A DNA stretch of 32,000 bases from an uncultured bacterium (GTDB taxonomy: Bacteria > Auribacterota > JACPWU01). Positions 3,950-31,709 of the stretch are shown one piece after another (position 1 is the first letter of the stretch; each line of letters begins with the position of its first letter). The stretch is taken from NCBI GenBank assembly GCA_964640155.1, contig CAZXEQ010000002.1, forward strand, positions 330,001 through 362,000. The letters are read 5' to 3'. The notes below the pieces were generated by a model. It saw only the letters and a list, made by a program, of their open reading frames with translations, did no database searches and was not told the DNA's origin. The position numbers and the translations under genes are program-made.

Positions 3950-4924
3950 ATGACCATCCCTCAAAAATTCTCTCAAGAAAAACTTAGCTCTCTTCTTCAA
4001 AATGCTTTCAATAAGAGAAAGCGGTTGTTAAATATTACAAATGCAATCCGATTGGTGAATGGACAGGGAGATGGTTTAAAGGGATTGGTGATTGATCGAT
4101 ATCATTCTCATTACATGGTTCAGGTTTATGATGATCAATGGGCCTCACGTTTGGAAGAGATAAAAAAGATTATTTTGGATGAAGAACATCCTGAGTTTTT
4201 AATCTTTAAAGAAACCTCCTCAGAAAAATCAGATCAAAATAGTTTTTATCGGGACTTAACATTTATGCAAGCAAGTTCTAAAACCATTGTTGCTGAAAAT
4301 GGTCTAAAATTTGAGGTTGATCTTGATGATGGCATAAATGCAGGCCTTTTTTTAGACATGCGTGCGAATCGTCAAAAAATACGAGAGATTGTAAAAGGAA
4401 AAGAAGTCCTTAATTGTTTTGCCTATACTTGTTCTTTTGGAGTTTATGCTCGTGCAGGAGGTGCCCTCAGAGTTGTGAATGTAGATATCAGTCAAAAAGC
4501 TCTCGACAAAGGGAAAAAGAATTATGAATTAAATCATCTTTCTCTGTCTGAAAACGAATTTGTAAAAATGGAGACGATAGAATATTTGGAAAGAGCCATC
4601 ATTAAAAAAAATGTATTTGATGTTGTCATTATTGATCCTCCTTCTTTTGCAAGATATGATGGGAAAGTCTTTTCTGTAAGAGAGAAAATGGGACGATTGA
4701 TCGAATTTGCAATGAGGATTCTGAAGCCCTCAGGATATTTGTTAATCGCAACGAATTTTTCAGAATTTTCTCTTACGATGCTTGAAAATGAGATAAAAGA
4801 TAGACTGAGATTTCTGGGGAAAAAGATAAAACAGGTGGATGTTTTAGGACAAGACAGTGATTTCCGTGGAAGTGGAACCATGAAGGAAAGTTATTTGGCT
4901 GCAGTTCTCATAAATTTAGTATGA
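3950..4924 (+). CDS. class I SAM-dependent RNA methyltransferase, RlmI/RlmK-like
   Basis: This is a 324-aa ORF. It has the SAM-binding region LNCFAYTCSFGVYA and the catalytic-type motif VVIIDPPSF, as in PF10672-type rRNA m5C methyltransferases. Confidence 0.6.
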   Translation: MTIPQKFSQEKLSSLLQNAFNKRKRLLNITNAIRLVNGQGDGLKGLVIDRYHSHYMVQVYDDQWASRLEEIKKIILDEEHPEFLIFKETSSEKSDQNSFYRDLTFMQASSKTIVAENGLKFEVDLDDGINAGLFLDMRANRQKIREIVKGKEVLNCFAYTCSFGVYARAGGALRVVNVDISQKALDKGKKNYELNHLSLSENEFVKMETIEYLERAIIKKNVFDVVIIDPPSFARYDGKVFSVREKMGRLIEFAMRILKPSGYLLIATNFSEFSLTMLENEIKDRLRFLGKKIKQVDVLGQDSDFRGSGTMKESYLAAVLINLV

Positions 4925-5018: not shown

Positions 5019-5105
5019 GGAAGGGTGGCTGAGTGGTTGAAAGCGCGGGTCTCGAAAATCCGTTTCCGAGCAATCGGAACGTGGGTTCGAATCCCACCCC
5101 TTCCG
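5019..5105 (+). tRNA. tRNA-Ser (anticodon CGA)
   Basis: Hand-folded cloverleaf. Acceptor GGAAGGG/CCCTTCC. Anticodon stem CGGGT/ATCCG with loop CTCGAAA. Long variable arm TTCCGA-GCAA-TCGGAA. T arm GTGGG-TTCGAAT-CCCAC. Discriminator G. No CCA is encoded. Confidence 0.9.
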
Positions 5106-5860: not shown

Positions 5861-5934
5861 GCGCCCGTAGCTCAGCTGGATAGAGCACTTGCCTACGAAG
5901 CAAGGGGCCACAGGTTCAAATCCTGTCGGGCGCA
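5861..5934 (+). tRNA. tRNA-Arg (anticodon ACG)
   Basis: Acceptor GCGCCCG/CGGGCGC. D arm GCTC-AGCTGGATA-GAGC. Anticodon stem CTTGC/GCAAG with loop CTACGAA. T arm ACAGG-TTCAAAT-CCTGT. Discriminator A. Confidence 0.9.
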
Positions 5935-6077: not shown

Positions 6078-6569
6078 ATGAAGTGTGAATGTATGATACA
6101 AGAGACTCCTATTGATGAAAAAGATATAAAGTATATGACTGAAGCTTTGAAAGAAGCTCAGTATGCTTTTGATGATGGAGAAACACCTGTAGGAGCTTGT
6201 ATTGTGTATGAAGGGAAAATTATTGCACGCTCTCATAATCAAGTGGAGCTTTTAAGAGATTCTACGGCTCATGCTGAGATGATTGCCATGACTCAAGCTG
6301 CCGATTTTCTGAATAACTGGCGATTGTTAAATTGTACACTTTATGTGACAAAAGAGCCTTGTTTGATGTGCACAGGTGCGATTTTGCTTTCAAGAATTCC
6401 TCGGCTTGTTTTTGGTGCTTTTGATGTGAGAAATAGGGGATTAAGAGATTTAATTCATCCAGGTTATGAACCAGAAATGAAACAATTAAATATAGTGCAG
6501 GGAGTTTTAGAAGCAGATTGTCAATTTCTTTTGAAAGAATTTTTTAAGAAGGCTAGAGAAAAATCATAG
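6078..6569 (+). CDS. tadA: tRNA-specific adenosine deaminase
   Basis: Deaminase zinc motifs HAEMIA and PCLMCTGA, with TadA-like size and the context GETPVGACIV. The track ORF starts at 6054 inside repeat B. ATG 6078 or 6093 is the more plausible start. Confidence 0.8.
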   Translation: MKCECMIQETPIDEKDIKYMTEALKEAQYAFDDGETPVGACIVYEGKIIARSHNQVELLRDSTAHAEMIAMTQAADFLNNWRLLNCTLYVTKEPCLMCTGAILLSRIPRLVFGAFDVRNRGLRDLIHPGYEPEMKQLNIVQGVLEADCQFLLKEFFKKAREKS

Positions 6570-6623: not shown

Positions 6624-6712
6624 GGAGAGGTGGCTGAGTGGCCTAAAGCGACGGCTTGCTAAGCCGTTGTACTGTTAATTCAGTACCGGGGGTTCGAATC
6701 CCCCCCTCTCCG
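6624..6712 (+). tRNA. tRNA-Ser (anticodon GCT)
   Basis: Acceptor GGAGAGG/CCTCTCC. Anticodon stem ACGGC/GCCGT with loop TTGCTAA. Long variable arm GTACTG-TTAATT-CAGTAC. T arm GGGGG-TTCGAAT-CCCCC. Discriminator G. Confidence 0.9.
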
Positions 6713-14355: not shown

Positions 14356-14365
14356 GTTTTGCTAT

Positions 14366-14490
14366 AAAAATATATTCTTTAAGTAAGAAGCGGGTCCTGA
14401 CGCTTGGCAGCCTCACCATACTTATGAAAAATTGCGCGCGGTGGGGCTTCCCCGCCAAGCGTCACCCATATCTATAAAGAACATACTTTT
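14366..14490. repeat. GC-rich palindromic element, copy E5 (intergenic folP/cdaA)
   Basis: Termini AAAAATATATTCTTTA and TAAAGAACATACTTTT are inverted. The core is GGGTCCTGACGCTTGGCAGCC...GGGGCTTCCCCGCCAAGCGTCACCC, with a 10-bp stem GACGCTTGGC/GCCAAGCGTC. It is homologous to E1-E4. Confidence 0.85.
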
Positions 14491-14585
14491 AATAAGTTCA
14501 ACCGGAAAAGTAGATTTTTGAATTTTCCGTTATCTCTTTCGAATCAAAATGAAGTAAAATCTTTTTAACAACAAAGCGAGATTTT

Positions 14586-23146: not shown

Positions 23147-23215
23147 AAAGTATAGAATTTGTGATGAATCTTTTCAATGATTTATAACAATGTTTGCTCA
23201 ATAGATATTGTAATT

Positions 23216-23339
23216 AAAAGTGTGTACTTTTAAAAAAGTGGCAGGGCCTGACACTCGTCATCCCCACCGTGCTCATAAAAAATTGCGCGCGGCGGGGCTC
23301 CCCGCCGAGTGTCACCCGTATTATAAAGGACACACTTTT
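23216..23339. repeat. GC-rich palindromic element, copy E1 (intergenic greA/pbpC)
   Basis: The termini AAAAGTGTGTACTTT and AAAGGACACACTTTT are inverted repeats. The core has a 9-bp stem TGACACTCG/CGAGTGTCA and a central GCGCGC. Confidence 0.85.
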
Positions 23340-23349
23340 ATACATGCTA

Positions 23350-25551
23350 TCACTCAACATGAATATTCACTTTTGCTGAAGCGCCTGTTTCGTCTGTAAC
23401 GTAAATCTCATGCAGGCCAGGTTGAGGAATCCAAAAAAGAGCTTTTTCTGGACGGGTTTTCCCTATGAGAAGCCCATTCACAAACCACCATCGCCAGGAA
23501 TGAGGCGATCCTCCTATAGACTGAAGAGGTAGTTTTTGATTTTTTTGAAAAGAGGGGGCGTCTAAGAAAAATTTTTGATTTGAAGAAATAGAAGAAATGG
23601 TTAGTTTAGAAATATCTTTTTCAAGTTCAATAGATTTTGCTAAACCTTCGTCCTGGATTTGAGGCCATGGTTTATTTTTCGGCTTTAAGCAAGATAGAAG
23701 TTTTAAAGTCAAGGGTGCTGCCAAAGTTTGTCCAACTAATTCATGAGAGCCTTTCCCAAGAGAGTTTCCAAGCCATGTTACAAGTGTGTATTCATGTGTT
23801 ACTGCTACACACCAAGCATCTTTGTGTGCACTGCTTGTGCCTGTTTTCCAGGCAGGATTAAATGGAATGGCTTCAGGACAAACAGCGTAAGTTCGTTTGG
23901 GATCACTTAAGGCATTCAGTACTTGCCAGCATGCTTTTTGAGATAATATATTTTGATGGTGTGAATAAAAGTGCGGTCCTTTAAAAAGTGGCGGGTCCTG
24001 CCACTCGTCAGCCCCAACGTGCTCACTAAAAGTTGCGCGCGATGGGGCCCCCCGCCGAGTGTCACCCGCATCTGTAAAGGACACACTTTTATCTACAGGA
24101 TTTACATTTTGTGTGGCAGTGTCAGTATTAGATGTTAAAAGAGGAATATAAGTGACAGGCAGATGAATTCCTCCTCGCCCCAGTGTTGCAAAAGCTTCTG
24201 CAAGTTCTATAGGAGAAGCCTCGGCTCCTCCTATAGCTAAAGAAAGGCCATATCGATCTGGAAATTGCTCCAGTCTTTTAAATCCTAAACTTTGTAAAAT
24301 TCCAACTACGCGAGCGATGCCTATTTTAGAAAGTAAAATCATGGCGGGGATATTTCGACTTTGAGCAAGTGCTTCTGCCGCACACATAAAGCCTCTAAAA
24401 GTATGATCAAAATTGCTAGGGGTGTAGCCCTCCCAGCTCAAAGGAAGGTCTTTTAAAATTGTTGTGGGGGTGCAAATTCCTGCTTCAAAAGCGGCTGCGT
24501 AAATAAATGGTTTTAATGTAGAACCTGTTGAATAGTAACGGTTGGATAAATCTAAATTATTTGCATCGTCACATAAATTAATCGAGGCCAAACACTCAGA
24601 AGTTTGTGTGTTTAAAAGAACAAGTGAAAGAGCGTTGATCTGAGAAGATTTTAACTTTTCGAATTCTTGTTTGGCTATGAGGGTTAACTGCTCTTGAATA
24701 TCTTTATCTAAAGAGGTTTTAAATTTTCCTTGTTGAAATTTTTCCTTTAAGGTCAGTAAGATGGGCAGAATTCCTGATTTTTTTTCTTGTGGCAGAGCTT
24801 GCCATGTGGCTTGAATAGGTTCTTCAATAGCGCGTGCGTAATCTTGCTCAGAGATCATTTTTTCTGATAACATTCGAAACAAAACGTGATTACGTCTCTT
24901 AAGTGCACGTTCTATAAAACGATCTGGGCGATAGCGATTGGGACTTTGAGGAAGGCCTGCCAAAAGGGCAGCTTGGCTTAAAGAAAGATTGCGACATGAA
25001 ATTCCAAAATATCTCCAGCTTGCAGCACCTACCCCGATTAAATTCCCTCCCAAAGGACATCGATTGAGATATTCTGTCAAAATTTCATTCTTACTCATTT
25101 TTCTTTCTAATTGATAAGCACGAATAGATTCAATCAGTTTGGATGAGAAAGTCCGTGGTTTTGGATAACGTAAATGTTCAACTTGCATGGTAAGAGTGCT
25201 TGCGCCACGTATGATTTTCATGGCTTTAAAATCTTGCCAAAGAGCAGCAGCAACGCCAATCCAGTCCACTCCATGGTGTTGATAAAAACGATGATCTTCG
25301 ACGGCAACAATTGCTTTAAAAAGATAAGGGCTTATTTCTTCTTCTTTTAATGGAAAATACCATTCATTTTTTTCTGAAACAAAAGCCCCCAAAGGCTTTC
25401 CTTCTCGATCTTCTATCCAAAGGCTGGGTGGAGGTTTTGGAGTGGGAGGATAAGACCAGGAGTAAACTGCAATAGAAAACGAAATACAAATAAAACTGAA
25501 TACGCTAATAATTCCCAGTATGAAAATTTTGAAAGAATGTTTAATGGTCAT
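23350..25551 (-). CDS. pbpC: penicillin-binding protein 1C
   Basis: GT51 motifs EDHRFYQHHGVD and RGASTLTMQ. Transpeptidase motifs STGSTLKPF (SxxK), SRN and KTGTS. A C-terminal PBP1C-type beta domain. A 4-nt overlap with the upstream alpha-2-macroglobulin gene. It carries repeat copy E2 in frame. Confidence 0.9.
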   Translation of the reverse strand: MTIKHSFKIFILGIISVFSFICISFSIAVYSWSYPPTPKPPPSLWIEDREGKPLGAFVSEKNEWYFPLKEEEISPYLFKAIVAVEDHRFYQHHGVDWIGVAAALWQDFKAMKIIRGASTLTMQVEHLRYPKPRTFSSKLIESIRAYQLERKMSKNEILTEYLNRCPLGGNLIGVGAASWRYFGISCRNLSLSQAALLAGLPQSPNRYRPDRFIERALKRRNHVLFRMLSEKMISEQDYARAIEEPIQATWQALPQEKKSGILPILLTLKEKFQQGKFKTSLDKDIQEQLTLIAKQEFEKLKSSQINALSLVLLNTQTSECLASINLCDDANNLDLSNRYYSTGSTLKPFIYAAAFEAGICTPTTILKDLPLSWEGYTPSNFDHTFRGFMCAAEALAQSRNIPAMILLSKIGIARVVGILQSLGFKRLEQFPDRYGLSLAIGGAEASPIELAEAFATLGRGGIHLPVTYIPLLTSNTDTATQNVNPVDKSVSFTDAGDTRRGAPSRATFSEHVGADEWQDPPLFKGPHFYSHHQNILSQKACWQVLNALSDPKRTYAVCPEAIPFNPAWKTGTSSAHKDAWCVAVTHEYTLVTWLGNSLGKGSHELVGQTLAAPLTLKLLSCLKPKNKPWPQIQDEGLAKSIELEKDISKLTISSISSNQKFFLDAPSFQKNQKLPLQSIGGSPHSWRWWFVNGLLIGKTRPEKALFWIPQPGLHEIYVTDETGASAKVNIHVE
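23967..24090. repeat. GC-rich palindromic element, copy E2 (inside pbpC, reading frame kept open)
   Basis: It has the same termini and core as E1. It is translated on the minus strand as DKSVSFTDAGDTRRGAPSRATFSEHVGADEWQDPPLFKGPHFY, between the SRN and KTG motifs of the transpeptidase domain. Confidence 0.85.
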
Positions 25552-28500
25552 GAATGTGAATGGGTTGCAATTTTCATTGTTTCATTGTCACGACTGATGC
25601 TGTTAATTGAAATATCATACATGCATTCAGCTTTTACAGGGGGAACAGTAAAAGTTCCAGGAGTCACAGCCCTGGCTAGATAAGTATATTGTGCTTTCCC
25701 TTTGTCTAACATTTTTCCGTAGAGCACAAGACGATCATCACGAATATCGATATGACTATCCATAAATGTAGTTTGAGTAGGGTCTTTGAGAATAGAAGCT
25801 GAAGTTGCAAGCCTTGGATTTTCAATTTCAAGTCCAGCGGGAAGCAAATCTTCAATGACCATATTGTCATAACCCAAAGGACATTCTAGATGTATCTCTA
25901 CTTGTATCAAGTCTCCACTACAAATTTTATCTAGGGCGATTGCGTGTCCCTGTTGATCAAGATATCTTTTTCTCACACTTATCCCATGATCTTCATTTAA
26001 AGGAGGCTCTTTGGCAAGGCCTGTGATGCTCCATGCAACATAGCCCTTTGTTTTTTCAGCTCCTGAGATTTTAACTGAAAATTCTTTCCCATTCAGAAAT
26101 TTATTTGAAGAATTCCAGAGAAGAGAATCTCCATTCCCTGTTTCAGAAATTTTCTCTGTCCCCGCCCAAAGTTCGGCTGATGTAAAAGGTTCTCCAAAAT
26201 CTGTTTCCTTTAAATAAGACCCCAGTGCAAGAAGAGCAAAAGCATGATCTTGCGTACTTTGCCATTTTTTTTCGCCGCCGGCTTGGGCAAGTTCTTTAAC
26301 CAATTTGGGAAGGGCTGGATTTTGTGGATCAAGTTCAATCAGACTTTGAATTAAAATAGCTTGATCTCGAATAGGGGACCCAATGTTTCCAGATAGGTCT
26401 CTGTTTTGGCGAGGGTGAGGTAGATTCTGAGGAATTAACTTTAAGGCCAAATCTCGTCTGCCAGAATAAAGCCAGGCCAGGGCAAGATAAAAGCGAGTTG
26501 AAGGATGGATGCTAGAGGAGATAGAAGTTGGGAGAGTGGAAGGTCTTTGAAAAATATCTTCCAGACGTGACATCATGGATCTCTGGGGATATCCCGCTTT
26601 AGCAAGAACAAAACAGGCATAAGCCTGAATCTCTAAAATATTGGGTTGATCAGAACTTTCGTTTAATAATTTTCGAACATAATTTAAAAGTCGATCGCGA
26701 AAATCAGTTGGAATAGAGAAGCCGGCGTTTTCTGCTTCGGTGATAAAATGTGTTGCATAAACACTGGCCCAGCTCCAGCTCTCAGTATAGCCAGGCCACA
26801 TAGCAAGTCCCCCTTCAGCTGTTTGCATACTGATCAAACGATTAAGAGCTGTTTCAACTCTTTGATGAATGTATTGAGTATTAAATGGTTCTGGGAAAAT
26901 CTTCTCTCCTAGTTTTTGCAATCCAATGAGAGGAAAGGTGGTGCTAACCGTTTGTTCGGCACATCCATGGGGGTATTCATTGAGATAATCCAAAGCCTTT
27001 GTCAGATTTAAAGTGGGAAATGGAGTTACGTGAATATTCAACTGTGTTGTTCCCTCAATCCATTTTTCTGGAATTCTGATTTTAAAATCTTGATGGGGTT
27101 TAAGGGTTGCATATCCTCCTTCAGAAATTGAAGGACAGGCAGGACGAATAGGGAATATGAGATTTTGCTGATATTCTTGTCCATTGAGTTGCGCTTTGAT
27201 TTTAAGACGAGCTATTCCCATTTTATTCTTAGCTTTCAAAGGAATGGTGATCACGGTTTGAGCGTTATCGGGAATGGAGTTTGTAGTAAAATTGATTTTT
27301 CTTTCGGAGGAGTGTGGAAAATAAACAGGACTTTTATTGTCTAGTTCTATTGAGAGGTTAGCAATGCCTTCACTTCCCGTATGATTGAAAATGACAATCG
27401 GTATTTCAAAATGATCATTATTTGCAGCAAAGCGAGGAGTAGTACTTTGTAACATGAGAGGAGATTTAACAAAAATGGGCTTAGATGCTGATCCAAAAAA
27501 TTTTTTAGAATGAGCAATGGCCATGACTCGCAATTGACCTGTGAATTCTGGAAGACGAAAATCAACTTTTACGTTTCCATTTTCGTCACAGCGAAGTACT
27601 TTTGAAACAAGTGCAACATTTTTCATACGTTGTATAGACAATGGAGTTAAATGACGTGGCTCATAACCTCCATCTCCTCCCACCGAACTTTTAGGATTTA
27701 TTTTTGGAATCTCTGGGAAAAGTTCTCCATAAAGATCTGAAACAAATACGTTCAAAGCTCGATTTCGATGAAAGAATGAAAAAGGATCTGGGGGTGAGAA
27801 ATTCGTGAGTTGAAGAATCCCTTCATCTACGATTAACAAAGTGACCCTTGCATTTTTAGCAGGTTTATTTTGAGGGGTTAAAACTTTTGCTTCAACACGG
27901 ATTTTGTTTTTGGGCAGGATTTCTTTTTTTGTTTGAATCTTTATTTTCAGCTTTTGATCGTTATTGTTGATCGCAAGGCGAGTCACGCCAAAAGCACGAT
28001 GGATTTTCCATGGAGCCTTGGAATGGACGGGCTGAATCACCGTCGCACTTACATAGGCATTGGGACGATAGCTTTCTAAAATATCAATCGGAATAGATAT
28101 ATGAGATTGTGTCATGGTCAGAACTTTGTGAAAGAGAACATTCTCTGTTTCTATCGTTAAAAGAAGTTGCCCTGGGAAAGGACTGCGAACAATGACTTGC
28201 GCTTGACCTCCAACTTTCAAAGAGGACGAATATCTATTAAAGTGCGTCTTTTTAAAAAGAAGTGGGTCCTGCCGCTCGTCAGCCCCATCGTGCTCAGTAA
28301 AAGTTGCGCTCGATGGGGCCCCCCGCCGAGCGTCACCCACATTTTTAGAATCATTTTTTAATTCTTTGCCCATAGGAATAATTTCAATTTGTAATTGCTC
28401 TGGGTTCTCTCGAGAGACTGAATCCTCCCAGCCATTTTCACTGCTCACATAAAATCCATGTGAAGTGAAGCTGCCTGTTTGAGAATCTTTGATAGCAATC

Positions 28501-31289
28501 ACATAAGACCCTTCACTGGGAGGAATGATTTCAAAATGTCCTTTCTCTTGTTCTAAAATTGCATAAGAAGAAGATGCTTTTTCCAGTATACGTGTTGAGT
28601 CATAATGATAGCTCCCATCGCGATAGGTCATGATATTGTTCCAAGTCTCACGAAAAAGTTGTATCTCCATTTGTTTCGAAATCTTGGCTATTTGCCCATG
28701 CCCAGAAACACATGCAATATCAAAAACATACGGAGAACCGGGCTGAGCTTTTTGATTTTGTTGAGGACGTATGCCGACATAATATGGAACAGTATCAATG
28801 AAAACTCTTTTTGTGGCACTGACAGCCCTACCGCCCATTTCTTGAACACTTCCCAGAACAGTTAATTGCCAGGGACCCGTATACGAGGGGGTTTCTTTTA
28901 TAAGAGAGTTCGGGGGGTGATTGAGAAGAAGAGAAAGATCTACTTTCCATTCACCTTTGCCTTTCTCATTTAATTTAATCTTAGGCGACTCAATCGATTG
29001 TCCTTGGGGAAGAATACCTCCAAGTGTTTTAAAAGCATTGGCAGAATCTGTGAAAGTCCATTCTTTCCAATGTTTGGGTTTGAATGGTGCAGGATCGAGA
29101 CGACTTGAAAGTGTTGCATCTGTTCCTGAAGCAGGTTGTCCAAAAAGATAGTTTGCTGCAATATGAACTGAAAGAGATTGTGAGGATAAAGTATAGCGAT
29201 CATGGCGAATATTTTTTAAATTTAAAGCAACTTTCATTCTATCGGGAATAAATTCCTCAACAAAAAAAGAAGTTGTTCCAAATGTTTTAGCATCAGCATC
29301 TTTTGATTTTGGAAGGCCAATGGATACAGTCCAATTTCCAGTGGGAATATCTTGAGGTAATTTGACAGAAAGGTAAACCATTCCAGAACTGTCCACCTTG
29401 GCCATGTGTCCTTTCCAATTTCTCCCATCGGGCCTATAAAATTGACACCAGACAGGAAATTCTTCGGGGGTACTTAAATGAGGCCCTCGAATGATTGCCC
29501 AGAGATGGACTTTTTCACCGGGTCTATAGGCTCCACGTTCAGAGTAGACAAAAGCTTCATAGGCTTTGGATGAATAAGGACTCCCAGAAATATCAAAATG
29601 AGAATAGGAAAGTTCGCTTGTTCTTAAATCTAACCATGTCAAATGGGCGGGCTCTGTGGCAGCGTTAAAATTTGCAACTACTACGACAGGTTTCTCATCG
29701 TTAGAGGTTTCAATGGTATTGATTTTAATAATACCATTTTCATCAGAAATTCCTTCTCCCAAAAGTTGATTCTTATTGGAAAATAAGCGAATGCGTACAT
29801 GCTCCATGGGTTTACCTGTACTTAAAGACAGAGTCCAAACAAAAAGACCATGAGGGAATCTCTTGGCCACTAAACCAATGTCAGATAATGTAACAACCGT
29901 TGTATCGGATAACTCCCAGGCATATCCTTGATTCTCATTCTCGGCTTTGATTTGAATTTCATAAACCCCATTTTGCTTGAGATTTTCAGGCAGGAGCTCA
30001 TCCAAGGATAAATGAATATCCTGAACTTTATTTTTCTCCATTTCTAATTTAAGAGATTTTTGTGCGATTACTTGACTAAAATGATGAAGACCCATCCATT
30101 GATTCTCATAAACCGTGTTTCTCCAATGGACAATATTATTCTCATACATTTTTGTGAGAGTGATTTGAATGTTTTGAACATTGATAGCGTGAGCTAGAAT
30201 CATTCGATTCCCTTTAGCTCCCAAAAACCCATGATCCTGTTCAAACCACACAGAAGCCTTACGATCTGGGATAAAAACACTAAAGAGATCTTCCTGAGGA
30301 TAATTTTTCGAATCATTTTTGATGCGAGGTGCATTTACTTTCAATGCATATCGGTTTCCAGGGATAAAATCTGCCTCAAGACTGACTCCAAACCATTCTC
30401 GAATCAGTGTGAAGGGTAAAATAGGTTCAATAGAAAGAATTTCTTTTAAAATTTCTATATCGACATCATTATTGAAATAAAGTTGCAGTCTAATTTTTCC
30501 TTTTGAAGAAGAATAAGGTTCTACTTTTGTAATCATTAAGTGGCGGTTAAGGGTCAATTGCGTTTCATAAAGATTGGTTAATCCTAAAGGCCCACTAATC
30601 CCACATAGTCCTTCTCGAATCCTTACAATCACTTGAAGATAAGAGGATATATTTTGATAGAGAAAAGGAGTGGGCTCTGTCATCACGCGTATCACATTTG
30701 CGGTTACGCCTTCATAAAGGCGAAAAGGGATTTTTTGATGAACCAGAGATTCAATCTCCAGAAATTTTGCAACTTCAGTTGGAAGCATTTTGTCGTTAAA
30801 TTCAATTTCAATCATAAACTGATTTTTTTCGTCAAAGGCTGCTTGGCGTACAGATAAAATTTGCAAGGCTGGGGTTTTGACGGTTGCAGAATACGACTGA
30901 TTCAGTAAAAACCCTTCCTTGGACTTTAAAGAATGAAGAGGAAAAGTAAAAGTAAAGGCTGTTGCTTTGGGGAGGTCTTTCTGGGGTGTAAAAGTAAGCT
31001 TTCGAGTGTTCACCCATTCCCAATGTCCAGGGATGAGGTAAGACGCATCGCCTGAACTCTTGATGATGACTTTGGATGAAACATCTTCACAAACCATATC
31101 TAAATTAAATTCCCAGGATAAAACAGGCCGTGTTCCTGTCTCAATATTGTTTCCTGGGTTAAAGCGTTCTATTTTAAGAACATTGAGCGTTTTTAATTGA
31201 TAAGCATGATGAAATGCTGCCCAGGCAAGAATATTTGTAATTGCAAAACAAAAAACGGTTATCCAAAATCGTTTGTGTAACATGAACAT
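25548..31289 (-). CDS. bacterial alpha-2-macroglobulin family protein (YfhM/ECAM-like)
   Basis: This is a 1913-aa ORF with an N-terminal hydrophobic anchor, many MG-type beta domains, and the thioester motif GCAEQ. GGAGA precedes the third-codon ATG (31283) at good spacing, so 31283 may be the true start. It carries repeat copy E3 in frame. Confidence 0.9.
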   Translation of the reverse strand: MFMLHKRFWITVFCFAITNILAWAAFHHAYQLKTLNVLKIERFNPGNNIETGTRPVLSWEFNLDMVCEDVSSKVIIKSSGDASYLIPGHWEWVNTRKLTFTPQKDLPKATAFTFTFPLHSLKSKEGFLLNQSYSATVKTPALQILSVRQAAFDEKNQFMIEIEFNDKMLPTEVAKFLEIESLVHQKIPFRLYEGVTANVIRVMTEPTPFLYQNISSYLQVIVRIREGLCGISGPLGLTNLYETQLTLNRHLMITKVEPYSSSKGKIRLQLYFNNDVDIEILKEILSIEPILPFTLIREWFGVSLEADFIPGNRYALKVNAPRIKNDSKNYPQEDLFSVFIPDRKASVWFEQDHGFLGAKGNRMILAHAINVQNIQITLTKMYENNIVHWRNTVYENQWMGLHHFSQVIAQKSLKLEMEKNKVQDIHLSLDELLPENLKQNGVYEIQIKAENENQGYAWELSDTTVVTLSDIGLVAKRFPHGLFVWTLSLSTGKPMEHVRIRLFSNKNQLLGEGISDENGIIKINTIETSNDEKPVVVVANFNAATEPAHLTWLDLRTSELSYSHFDISGSPYSSKAYEAFVYSERGAYRPGEKVHLWAIIRGPHLSTPEEFPVWCQFYRPDGRNWKGHMAKVDSSGMVYLSVKLPQDIPTGNWTVSIGLPKSKDADAKTFGTTSFFVEEFIPDRMKVALNLKNIRHDRYTLSSQSLSVHIAANYLFGQPASGTDATLSSRLDPAPFKPKHWKEWTFTDSANAFKTLGGILPQGQSIESPKIKLNEKGKGEWKVDLSLLLNHPPNSLIKETPSYTGPWQLTVLGSVQEMGGRAVSATKRVFIDTVPYYVGIRPQQNQKAQPGSPYVFDIACVSGHGQIAKISKQMEIQLFRETWNNIMTYRDGSYHYDSTRILEKASSSYAILEQEKGHFEIIPPSEGSYVIAIKDSQTGSFTSHGFYVSSENGWEDSVSRENPEQLQIEIIPMGKELKNDSKNVGDARRGAPSSATFTEHDGADERQDPLLFKKTHFNRYSSSLKVGGQAQVIVRSPFPGQLLLTIETENVLFHKVLTMTQSHISIPIDILESYRPNAYVSATVIQPVHSKAPWKIHRAFGVTRLAINNNDQKLKIKIQTKKEILPKNKIRVEAKVLTPQNKPAKNARVTLLIVDEGILQLTNFSPPDPFSFFHRNRALNVFVSDLYGELFPEIPKINPKSSVGGDGGYEPRHLTPLSIQRMKNVALVSKVLRCDENGNVKVDFRLPEFTGQLRVMAIAHSKKFFGSASKPIFVKSPLMLQSTTPRFAANNDHFEIPIVIFNHTGSEGIANLSIELDNKSPVYFPHSSERKINFTTNSIPDNAQTVITIPLKAKNKMGIARLKIKAQLNGQEYQQNLIFPIRPACPSISEGGYATLKPHQDFKIRIPEKWIEGTTQLNIHVTPFPTLNLTKALDYLNEYPHGCAEQTVSTTFPLIGLQKLGEKIFPEPFNTQYIHQRVETALNRLISMQTAEGGLAMWPGYTESWSWASVYATHFITEAENAGFSIPTDFRDRLLNYVRKLLNESSDQPNILEIQAYACFVLAKAGYPQRSMMSRLEDIFQRPSTLPTSISSSIHPSTRFYLALAWLYSGRRDLALKLIPQNLPHPRQNRDLSGNIGSPIRDQAILIQSLIELDPQNPALPKLVKELAQAGGEKKWQSTQDHAFALLALGSYLKETDFGEPFTSAELWAGTEKISETGNGDSLLWNSSNKFLNGKEFSVKISGAEKTKGYVAWSITGLAKEPPLNEDHGISVRKRYLDQQGHAIALDKICSGDLIQVEIHLECPLGYDNMVIEDLLPAGLEIENPRLATSASILKDPTQTTFMDSHIDIRDDRLVLYGKMLDKGKAQYTYLARAVTPGTFTVPPVKAECMYDISINSISRDNETMKIATHSHS
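26952..26963 (-). other. thioester motif C-A-E-Q of the alpha-2-macroglobulin
   Basis: The minus-strand codons TGT GCC GAA CAA lie in frame with the ATG at 31289 (Cys is codon 1443), in the context YPHGCAEQTVS. Confidence 0.8.
28239..28359. repeat. GC-rich palindromic element, copy E3 (inside the alpha-2-macroglobulin gene, reading frame kept open)
   Basis: The core is GTGGGTCCTGCCGCTCGTCAGCCCC...GGGGCCCCCCGCCGAGCGTCACCCAC. The right terminus is degenerate. It is translated as NDSKNVGDARRGAPSSATFTEHDGADERQDPLLFKKTHF, in the same element frame as E2. Confidence 0.8.
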
Positions 31290-31361
31290 TCTCCAAAATC
31301 CAAAGTTTTTTAGTTAGAAATAGTAGGAAAATAATCTCACATATAAACTTAAGTCCTCGGG

Positions 31362-31495
31362 CTTTTCACCGTCCTTTAGGATGAGGTAAGAAACGGGGCC
31401 TGCCACTCGTCAGCCCTACCGTGCTCATGAAAAATTGCGCGCGGGGCGGGGCTCCCCCCGCCGAGTGTCACCCGTATTGTAAAGGACACACTTTT
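31362..31495. repeat. GC-rich palindromic element, copy E4 (upstream of the alpha-2-macroglobulin gene)
   Basis: The core is GGGGCCTGCCACTCGTCAGCCC...GGGGCTCCCCCCGCCGAGTGTCACCCG. The right terminus AAAGGACACACTTTT is intact. The left terminus is partly degenerate, so the left boundary is approximate. Confidence 0.75.
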
Positions 31496-31709
31496 TTACA
31501 CACGATCGGGAAAATTTTCTTAAAAACACTTTGAGATTTTCGAGAAGCAGGGTCAAGAAGAAAACAGAAGTGATTTATAAAATACGAAGTAACTCGCTGA
31601 AGGAGAGAAAGTAGGGATAAAATTTTTTTGAAAAATTATTTTACAATTAAAAAAACTTGAAGATTTTTCTAAATCTCAAGCTCGAAGTTTAAGGGATTTC
31701 TCAAAAGGA

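Follow-up and report, generated by a model that had tools for sequence, protein, structure and literature searches.

A probable old in-frame insertion of a non-autonomous MITE into the MG6/MG7 linker of a bacterial alpha-2-macroglobulin

The alpha-2-macroglobulin gene and its extra segment

The window, i.e., the whole 32-kb stretch of DNA that was analysed, carries on its minus strand a gene for a bacterial alpha-2-macroglobulin (A2M), whose stop codon is overlapped by the start of pbpC. The features of this gene discussed below, including the repeat copy within it (termed E3), are the following:

25548..31289, minus strand: host gene, bacterial alpha-2-macroglobulin, 1913 aa (Pfam, PDB, Foldseek)
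26952..26966, minus strand: thioester motif GCAEQ, with Cys1443
27618..27737, minus strand: counterpart of the bait region, aa 1185-1224, distinct from the insert (in the stretch that aligns to ECAM RFGGDGDELKRGGKPPVN)
28218..28373, read on the minus strand, element orientation plus: full E3 insertion, aa 973-1024, about 52 codons (gap relative to the orthologue L036)
28234..28363, plus strand: E3 repeat copy as detected by profile (nhmmer E = 4e-39)
28262..28337, no strand assigned: GC-rich hairpin core of E3 (fold z-scores, covariation, identity to the orthologue L015)

The protein contains the Pfam domains bMG3, MG2, bMG5, bMG6, A2M_BRD, A2M and bMG10, its PDB sequence matches are E. coli YfhM and Salmonella A2M, and the top Foldseek matches are 5a42 and 4u48. 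With its series of MG domains, CxEQ thioester and adjacent pbpC, it shares the properties that define bacterial A2Ms, as known from ECAM/YfhM and SaA2M (PDB 5a42, 4ziq, 4rtd, 4u48). The window protein differs from both in having about 52 additional residues before the residue aligned to ECAM ~768, where the MG domain ahead of the bait-bearing one begins; neither ECAM nor SaA2M has a comparable insert. The additional segment is located between Pfam bMG6 (839-948) and A2M_BRD (1022-1161); it follows the last MG6 strand and precedes the first one of MG7. The nearest relatives of the A2M and pbpC genes are labelled as Chlamydiae or Planctomycetes-type MAGs.

A family of short palindromic repeats

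Independently of the initial annotation of this DNA, which had noted related elements in A2M and pbpC, a palindromic GC-rich repeat was found in five copies within the window. Besides E3, these are:

23956..24102, plus strand: copy E2, 147 nt, in pbpC, with 9-bp direct repeats on both sides
23203..23350, plus strand: intergenic copy adjoining the pbpC stop codon (repeat and profile detection)
31382..31510, plus strand: copy upstream of A2M, with unrelated sequence in place of its left end
14356..14497, plus strand: intergenic copy with a plus-strand gene on either side (repeat and profile detection)

Beyond the five window copies, eight were found in the MAG JAYRIK01 and two more in Logan assemblies, which gives a family of 15 known copies from four assemblies; each of them has an nhmmer E < 1e-22. 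The DNA examined, either element-bearing or closely related, amounts to ~112 kb. In the GTDB species set the sole other genome bearing the family is a MAG labelled Candidatus Auribacterota. Twelve of the 15 copies are intergenic; the three coding copies go back to two events. Four window copies lie within 8.3 kb around A2M-pbpC, and the MAG has a copy between A2M and pbpC that is missing from the window.

Inverted-repeat ends and a hairpin fold are common to the copies. The terminal inverted repeats (ATAAAAGTGYGTCCTTT ... AAAGGACACACTTTTAT; outer ends, e.g., ATGTTGTAT / ATACA..GAT) pair with each other in the predicted folds. The size stays below the ~500 bp usual for MITEs (147 nt for E2, ~150 nt for most copies by profile) and no transposase gene is present, the longest ORF in the element being the element's own frame. 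REP units, at 20-40 nt, are much shorter. Neither an autonomous IS with matching ends nor a transposase-bearing relative was seen in the ~112 kb. Taken with the dispersal of the copies and the target duplication and empty site described below, these properties make the repeat a new MITE family, with a behaviour resembling that of the RPE repeats of Rickettsia.

The Rfam search returned only tRNAs and no family match for the repeat. In a simple terminator and promoter scan the copies were unflagged, at background level, and therefore no claim of a terminator is made. Matches to the core pattern alone were discarded: all 18 metagenome loci were GC-rich chance matches without the element, and 7 of 16 genome matches were chance noise of the same kind.

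The copy in pbpC is a transposition product

The element E2 measures 147 bp and has a 9-bp target duplication on its two sides, TATATTTTG (23947-23955) and TACATTTTG (24103-24111). The closest orthologous pbpC (L004/P0068, 75% amino acid identity) has the empty site, namely a single TACATTTTG and no element. E2 is thus a product of transposition. Since element and duplication together make 156 bp (147 + 9), i.e., 52 codons, a full-length insertion never shifts the downstream frame. The peptide DAGDTRRGAPSRATFSEHVGADEWQDPPLFKGPHFY of E2 corresponds to pbpC aa 494-529. For most intergenic copies the target duplication is unrecoverable, and an automatic 8-of-9 search gave only unconvincing candidates.

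The copy in alpha-2-macroglobulin

The initial annotation had placed a copy of the element inside the 1913-aa A2M ORF, translated in the element frame that is also used in pbpC, and both statements were confirmed: E3 is one of the five window copies, and it is read, as E2 is, from the minus strand in the same frame. With the 15-copy profile its bounds are 28228-28364 (E = 1.8e-40), and it is 86% identical to E2 over 112 nt. The peptide NVGDARRGAPSSATFTEHDGADERQDPLLFKKTHFN covers A2M aa 983-1018 (window 28236-28343). A hand count of 25 identities in 33 aligned residues agrees with the 25 invariant columns found from GD... to ...HF; the 33-aa peptide is rich in Gly, Pro and Ala (27%) and in charged residues (33%), as had been described, and Cys1443 of the thioester stands 426 codons past residue 1017, close to the ~430 estimated. 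The span originally given, 28239-28359, does contain the repeat, yet the whole insertion is larger, ~28218-28373, and comprises degenerate ends derived from the terminal inverted repeats (TIRs) as well as the core. This core has a GC content of 68%, against 39% for the gene, and fold z-scores of -5.6 and -4.3 on the two strands.

The comparison with orthologues shows that the segment is a true insertion of a copy of the repeat family. Relative to the A2M of L036 (54.5% amino acid identity), the gap comprises 51-52 residues between the MG6 strand ending in ...EIIP and the MG7 strand KVGGQAQVIVRSPF; in L036, ...KISP is joined straight to VRVGEK with no linker. An orthologue free of the repeat and nonetheless sharing the segment would speak against insertion, as had been pointed out, and here the opposite was observed: the element is undetectable anywhere in the 22-kb locus of L036 and the segment is lacking as well. 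The size of the E3 insertion (156 nt) agrees with that of E2. By analogy with E2 a target duplication was sought at E3 and none was recognisable, as the flanks are too diverged; the mode of insertion consequently rests on the analogy with E2, from which we infer transposition for E3 too.

Age of the insertion

In the A2M of the Candidatus Auribacterota MAG (L015, 67.6% amino acid identity) this copy is found again, with junction and frame unchanged. At 97% identity, its core and that of E3 form the second-closest of 105 copy pairs (mean 85%), and the ends are decayed in both copies, unlike those of E2. Since the window and MAG lineages both carry E3, the insertion predates their split. Judged from these alignments, it is ancestral to both lineages and later than the split from L036. 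Twenty-four more distant A2M homologues have unrelated linkers of ~0-70 aa at the position of E3.

E2 is missing from the pbpC of the MAG, its ends and target duplication are intact, and it is demonstrably younger than E3. An equal age of the two coding copies was considered and dropped for this reason. The locus offers a clean natural experiment, in which a young insertion in pbpC, with intact ends, duplication and empty site, stands against an old one in A2M, common to orthologues 68% identical.

Reading frame of the element

The initial annotation had suggested that only the frame in use is stop-free and tolerated. This holds for the complete 147-nt E2, where the used frame is the sole stop-free one, and for the GC-rich core, where it is the only frame open in all 15 copies (in 8-14 of the 15 the core is also free of stops in four further frames). 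It does not hold for the family consensus, where stops interrupt all frames. Across the inner 128 nt the used frame is open in 7 of 15 copies and the other frames in 0-3. The copy in the A2M of the MAG is orthologous to E3, so that the independent coding events are only two (A2M and pbpC), and that both share one of six frame-and-orientation combinations has a chance of 1 in 6.

Position of the loop and the bait region

In the AlphaFold2 model, strands occupy aa 967-973 and 1029-1035, and pLDDT is below 50 for aa 976-1021, although the low value at the insert may be due in part to the alignment lacking this segment, and not to real disorder. The inserted peptide is thus predicted to be disordered. 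Together with the hypervariable linker of the homologues, the model favours the flexible, tolerated loop that had been proposed from the composition of the peptide.

It had also been speculated that an exposed loop might alter bait-like properties. In the window A2M the segment that aligns to the ECAM bait (Arg923-Asn963, just before PF00207) is ~aa 1185-1224, within a second stretch of low confidence (pLDDT below 50 for aa 1175-1224, a few isolated residues excepted); in the alignment ECAM RFGGDGDELKRGGKPPVN was numbered F947-N963 by fit to Arg956, Gly958 and Asn963, as named in PMC4498604. The insert and the bait-aligned segment are separate stretches with a folded MG domain between them in the model. 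As the insert, at the MG6/MG7 junction, lies ~160-200 residues N-terminal of the bait region, the bait idea is unsupported. We infer that the loop is neutral for A2M function. That the MG6/MG7 junction of a bacterial A2M and a loop of PBP1C accept ~50 extra residues is useful for protein engineering.

Proposed history of the insertion

It is very probable that a non-autonomous MITE inserted long ago in frame into the MG6/MG7 linker, outside the bait region, and that this copy, E3, has been retained since. The element of ~147 bp consists of a GC-rich hairpin core between AT-rich terminal inverted repeats and generates a 9-bp target duplication upon insertion. Survival in a needed gene would then depend on a frame read through the element without stops and on a site tolerating ~50 extra residues. 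The MG6/MG7 junction, a linker of variable length in other bacterial A2Ms, may have been such a site, where E3 would be translated as a disordered loop. The insertion would have occurred after the split from the linker-less L036 lineage and before that of the window and 'Auribacterota' MAG lineages, and would have been kept thereafter; with the loop outside the bait region, protease trapping need not have changed.

Conservation of the core and alternative explanations

The core of E3 (72 nt, codons 985-1008) is identical to that of L015 at 70 of 72 nt. Neither of the two mismatches is synonymous, and the third positions agree in all 24 codons, compared with 57% over the gene as a whole. Among 1461 sliding windows of the A2M gene (mean 52.9, sd 5.2 identical nt) the core is the best, and it is the only one with 24 of 24 third positions. 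Such near-perfect synonymous conservation is contrary to what a merely tolerated neutral loop would predict, and the lack of any synonymous change points to constraint at the level of nucleic acid.

The GC-rich hairpin core might accordingly be a selected nucleic-acid signal, either an RNA structure of the A2M-pbpC transcript or a protein-binding or cruciform DNA, with the peptide as its by-product; we regard this as a tentative possibility, on balance unlikely. The TIR-derived parts of the same insert are strongly diverged, with indels. Compensatory changes across the 15 copies preserve the hairpin: double-changed cells number 15, against 5.3 +/- 1.6 in shuffled alignments (none of 500 shuffles reaches 15), and paired cells make 94.9%, against 33-58% with partners slid; unpaired core positions are invariant too. 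Against a selected signal, two other windows of the gene reach 22 of 24 third positions, which shows that conservation along A2M is heterogeneous, and the Rfam and terminator searches offer nothing in its favour. The counts of G-U and A-C are balanced (10 vs 9), so that no transcribed strand is indicated, and the orthologous intergenic pair L035/L011 is no better conserved (86%) than its flanks (87%). Somewhat more doubtful still is a dual use of the A2M copy, as a translated linker and at the same time an RNA or DNA signal under selection, with the core as a functional nucleic-acid module, which might serve the A2M-pbpC operon as a processing, pausing or binding site. The conservation of synonymous sites is in any case a testable hint of selection on repeats at the nucleic-acid level even within genes; the core is free of synonymous change in a gene where 43% of third positions differ.

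One may ask if concerted evolution is responsible instead, with other genomic copies overwriting the core time and again through gene conversion. Donors are many, four copies lying around A2M-pbpC, conversion tracts would span the similar core and spare the decayed ends, and cores are alike across genomes in general (e.g., E2 and the MAG copy L011, 95%). Conversion within each genome would, however, draw copies toward those of their own genome, and E3 and the L015 copy are mutual closest relatives across genomes, sharing a combination of variants missing from the aligned copies (the unique CTCAG, G-C at pair columns 51/119 and T-A at pair 71/96). Concerted evolution is therefore improbable. 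More improbable still is an independent acquisition of E3 and the L015 copy at the same hotspot: the A2M-pbpC locus does draw copies, with four within 8.3 kb in the window and one between A2M and pbpC in the MAG, and recent insertions of a conserved master copy would yield a high core identity, but the two copies agree in junction, orientation, frame and private variants, and both have heavily decayed ends and no recognisable duplication, while the younger E2 is intact. Least credible of all, and already largely refuted, is the view that A2M had this linker from the start, or that the segment is a protein-level module, with the repeat derived from it or spreading for the sake of its peptide: the used frame has no stop in the core of any of the 15 copies and ORFs of 33-63 aa made of the peptide are present in public databases, but 12 of 15 copies are intergenic, stops close the used frame over the inner 128 nt in 8 of 15, inverted-repeat ends and a target duplication characterise the element, L036 lacks the segment, and a peptide profile found no other long protein among 1.84 billion representatives, where clustering at 50% could hide insert-bearing variants. 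The database "proteins" of 33-63 aa are probably annotation artefacts. Three weak matches of the peptide profile (P0191-P0193) proved to be unrelated repeat proteins.

Comparison with known repeats

According to their site of insertion, bacterial MITEs and REP-like repeats can exert effects at the level of DNA, RNA or protein (PMC10969869). The Correia/CREE, ERIC, BOX and RUP elements resemble the present repeat in being short and non-autonomous, with inverted ends and stable hairpins (PMC10969869); Rfam gave no match between it and any of them. QMITE2 of Coxiella burnetii (PMC5896051) is of the same size class (150-190 bp, with 7-11 nt direct repeats) and likewise lies mostly in 3' regions or intergenic, occasionally in frame within ORFs or at their ends; one copy was inverted in place between strains of C. 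burnetii (PMC5896051). The hosts are unrelated, and the likeness is drawn from the published description. The coding insertions of QMITE2 are mostly in hypothetical genes or at gene ends, whereas E3 would be an interdomain-linker insertion retained across deeply diverged orthologues, of a kind unreported for QMITE2.

The closest parallel in behaviour is offered by RPE-1 to RPE-10 (Ogata et al., 2000, 2002; summarised in PMC10969869 and PMC1779305), a likeness again drawn from descriptions. These too are interspersed palindromes, 100-150 bp long, of an AT-rich genome; they occupy intergenic sites and also lie in frame within protein-coding genes, where they add a peptide and do not destroy the protein, as the present palindrome does in A2M and pbpC; some are old and common to descendant lineages, e.g., RPE-7 in PheT. 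The in-frame palindromic-repeat phenomenon, best known in Rickettsia, is thereby extended to a poorly known PVC-related lineage; the present host is a relative of a Candidatus Auribacterota MAG and does not belong to the Rickettsiales, the hosts of RPE. For some RPE families nearly half of the copies are reported to lie in ORFs, compared with 3 of 15 copies, from two events, here, and the present repeat differs from RPE in its clear 9-bp target duplication.

Host genes and repeat copies

The repeat search of the window (GC ~39%) returned a single family of five copies, four of them clustered in the 8.3 kb that surround the A2M-pbpC operon (23203–31510). In the window, the pbpC ATG overlaps the stop codon of A2M (ATGA); at that point the related MAG JAYRIK01 carries a further copy between the two genes (L004 602–722). 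This locus resembles a hotspot of the repeat.

Host genes and repeat copies in the window (starts are from the repeat search)
14356–14497, plus strand, repeat copy, start ~14364
23203–23350, plus strand, repeat copy, start ~23215
23350..25551, minus strand, pbpC open reading frame of 733 aa, PBP1C by Pfam, downstream of A2M
23956–24102, plus strand, repeat copy E2, start ~23965
25548..31289, minus strand, A2M open reading frame of 1913 aa, bacterial alpha-2-macroglobulin by Pfam
28228–28364, plus strand, repeat copy E3, start ~28236; family profile 28234–28363 (E = 4e-39), improved profile 28228–28364
31382–31510, plus strand, repeat copy, start ~31367

All five copies share the plus orientation whichever way the neighboring genes run (two-sided chance ~0.06). 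The cumulative GC skew climbs over the entire window, and from this rise the plus strand may be the leading strand. In the copy preceding the start of A2M (31352–31400) the left inverted end is absent, with the unrelated CCTCGGGCTTTTCACCGTCCTTTAGGATGAGG in its place, and the core contains a 4-nt insertion. Three tRNA genes, all on the plus strand, are present at 5019–5105, 5861–5934, and 6624–6712.

Insertion into pbpC and A2M

The initial annotation had proposed that E3 and E2 are translated within their host genes in an identical element frame, with 25 of 33 aligned residues shared; all of this was borne out, the peptides occupying aa 983–1018 of A2M and aa 494–529 of pbpC. In the closest pbpC orthologue (P0068, MAG contig L004; 75% aa identity) the segment is precisely absent. 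The window DNA reads TATATTTTG, the 147-nt element (23956–24102), then TACATTTTG, and the orthologous DNA contains one TACATTTTG only. E2 is thus bounded by a 9-bp target-site duplication, and the orthologue shows the empty site; together these are the hallmark of transposition. The element and its duplication amount to 156 nt, i.e., 52 codons, therefore a full-length insertion leaves the downstream frame unshifted and only stops within the element count.

At the A2M site, among 24 homologues of 35–41% identity the stretch from the last MG6 strand to the first MG7 strand is hypervariable (~0–70 residues), and none of these 24 linkers resembles the element. The insertion reading was tested on a closer orthologue without the repeat (L036, GCA_016178005.1; 54.5% aa identity), reached via its pbpC neighbor. 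There ...KISP abuts VRVGEK directly, the element was undetected in 22 kb, and the window protein has 51–52 extra residues (aa 973–1024, window 28218–28373), a size matching the E2 insertion; the absence of the segment favors insertion. In the Auribacterota MAG, the A2M protein (L015; 67.6% aa identity) has a copy at the junction occupied by E3 and read in the frame of E3, NTGDARRGGPSSATFAEHDGADERQDPPLLGK. The cores of E3 and this copy are 97% identical, which ranks them second among 105 copy pairs (mean 85%); both have common variants absent from other copies, and the ends are decayed in both. Being absent in L036 and common to the window and L015, E3 was inserted after the split of the L036 lineage and before that of the window and the MAG; it is an old insertion. 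E2 is younger and confined to the window lineage. On the decayed right-end side (L015 ~6440–6520) the MAG copy has ~13 codons more than the window copy, EKWNVLFYMPFQI, a secondary indel inside the insert.

A word-indexed protein search with A2M failed to return its two closest orthologues (68 and 54% identical), which came to light only by DNA pattern matching and via the pbpC neighbor; a missing hit in that search carries little weight.

Conservation of the core at synonymous sites

When the A2M genes of the window and L015 are aligned by codon, the core (codons 985–1008) is identical at 70 of 72 nt; all 24 third positions agree and both differences are non-synonymous, against a third-position identity of 57% over the whole gene. 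Over 1461 sliding windows, with a mean of 52.9 identical nt (sd 5.2), the core scores highest and alone has 24/24 identical third positions; 22/24 is reached twice elsewhere in the gene. Between the same two genes, the TIR-derived parts of the insert exhibit heavy divergence and indels. A merely tolerated loop would be expected to drift, and the core did not, which suggests that it may be constrained as nucleic acid, as a putative hairpin or binding site. Repeated gene conversion by other copies could also yield such identity, but is the less likely source. This conservation of the E3 core at synonymous sites is the one feature that merits follow-up.

Reading frame through the element

It was proposed initially that only one frame of the element is tolerated. 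The used frame is indeed the most permissive: no other is stop-free in the full 147-nt E2, none but this one stays open across the core in 15/15 copies, and over the inner 128 nt it is open in 7/15 copies vs 0–3/15 for other frames. The claim has limits: four further frames stay open across the core in 8–14 of 15 copies, and no frame of the family consensus is free of stops. With only two independent coding events, the chance that they agree at random is 1 in 6. Frame selection as a survival filter is plausible, though unproven. When the peptide profile was run against 1.84 billion representative proteins, this A2M was the only long protein with the peptide; four ORFs of 33–63 aa were calls on intergenic copies, and three further matches were discarded as unrelated chance hits. 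Such 33–63 aa database "proteins" (P0187–P0190; L035 2063–2233; L037 315–506) correspond to the open frame of intergenic copies and are likely annotation artefacts.

Position of the insert in the protein

E3 lies between the Pfam domains bMG6 (839–948) and A2M_BRD (1022–1161), and the thioester Cys, placed initially some 430 codons downstream, is residue 1443, i.e., 426 codons past residue 1017. The alignment to E. coli YfhM/ECAM picks up again at window residue 1025, which is chain index 729 of 5a42_A and ECAM residue ~768 (offset +39, derived from the paper's residue numbers). The window segment aligned to the ECAM bait is found around aa 1185–1224; its counterpart comprises the disordered Arg923–Leu942 and F947–N963 (PMC4498604), the latter numbering being fitted from Arg956, Gly958, and Asn963 named there. 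The AlphaFold2 model of aa 830–1240, with ECAM and Salmonella A2M as best structural matches, predicts confident MG-domain strands either side of the insert and two separate low-confidence segments, aa 976–1021 (insert) and aa 1175–1224 (bait). A flexible loop is therefore a reasonable reading of the insert. The suggested bait-like role is unsupported, because the insert is ~160–200 residues upstream of the bait and a folded domain separates the two.

Structure, spread, and relatives of the family

All copies are long imperfect palindromes in which AT-rich inverted ends enclose a GC-rich core (68% GC in E3). Compared with shuffled sequence, single-strand folds are far more stable in four of five window copies (z = -4.8 to -6.4), and z = -2.6 for the 31367 copy with its replaced left end. 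Across 15 copies the core hairpin is maintained by compensatory changes: 15 double-changed cells were counted vs 5.3 ± 1.6 in shuffles (0/500 that high), and 94.9% of cells are paired vs 33–58% with partners slid. Neither strand is favored, since G-U and A-C cells occur about equally often (10 vs 9, counted from pair types).

No Rfam family matches the repeat. In a pattern scan that covered a single genome for each species, it turned up in only one other, the fragmented MAG JAYRIK01, labelled Candidatus Auribacterota (eight copies confirmed by family profile); Logan assemblies added two copies, and a metagenome scan yielded chance matches only. Twelve of 15 copies are intergenic.

The element resembles the Rickettsia palindromic elements (RPE), palindromes of 100–150 bp that are intergenic as well as intragenic in frame, some of them ancient insertions; by host lineage it falls outside the RPE families. 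It is also similar to Coxiella QMITE2 (150–190 bp, direct repeats of 7–11 nt, occasional in-frame insertions, a copy inverted between strains), and it has the structure that defines a MITE, except that a parent IS was not found in the ~112 kb examined. The repeat represents a new family within a known class of elements, and the E3 coding insertion is real and ancient, its mechanism ordinary.

Individual copies show further rearrangements. In L016 (99–257) the left core arm is swapped for a different small palindrome, CCCCGATGTCACATCGGGG, with the right arm and ends retained, making it a variant subfamily or rearrangement. At the orthologous loci L035 (2078–2210) and L011 (541–664), from two related assemblies with flanks 86–87% identical, the cores stand in opposite orientations (inverted match 86% over 114 nt), the result of either an in-place flip via their inverted ends or two separate insertion events at a shared site. 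In L005 (4379–4528) a minus-strand open frame of 229 codons stops within the element (4491–4493), which provides its final few codons and stop; here the element overlaps the end of a gene and is not inserted within one. Most copies of MAG JAYRIK01 (L002, L004, L010, L011, L016) lie no more than a few hundred bases from a contig end, and it is probably the repeat that interrupts short-read assemblies in this lineage.
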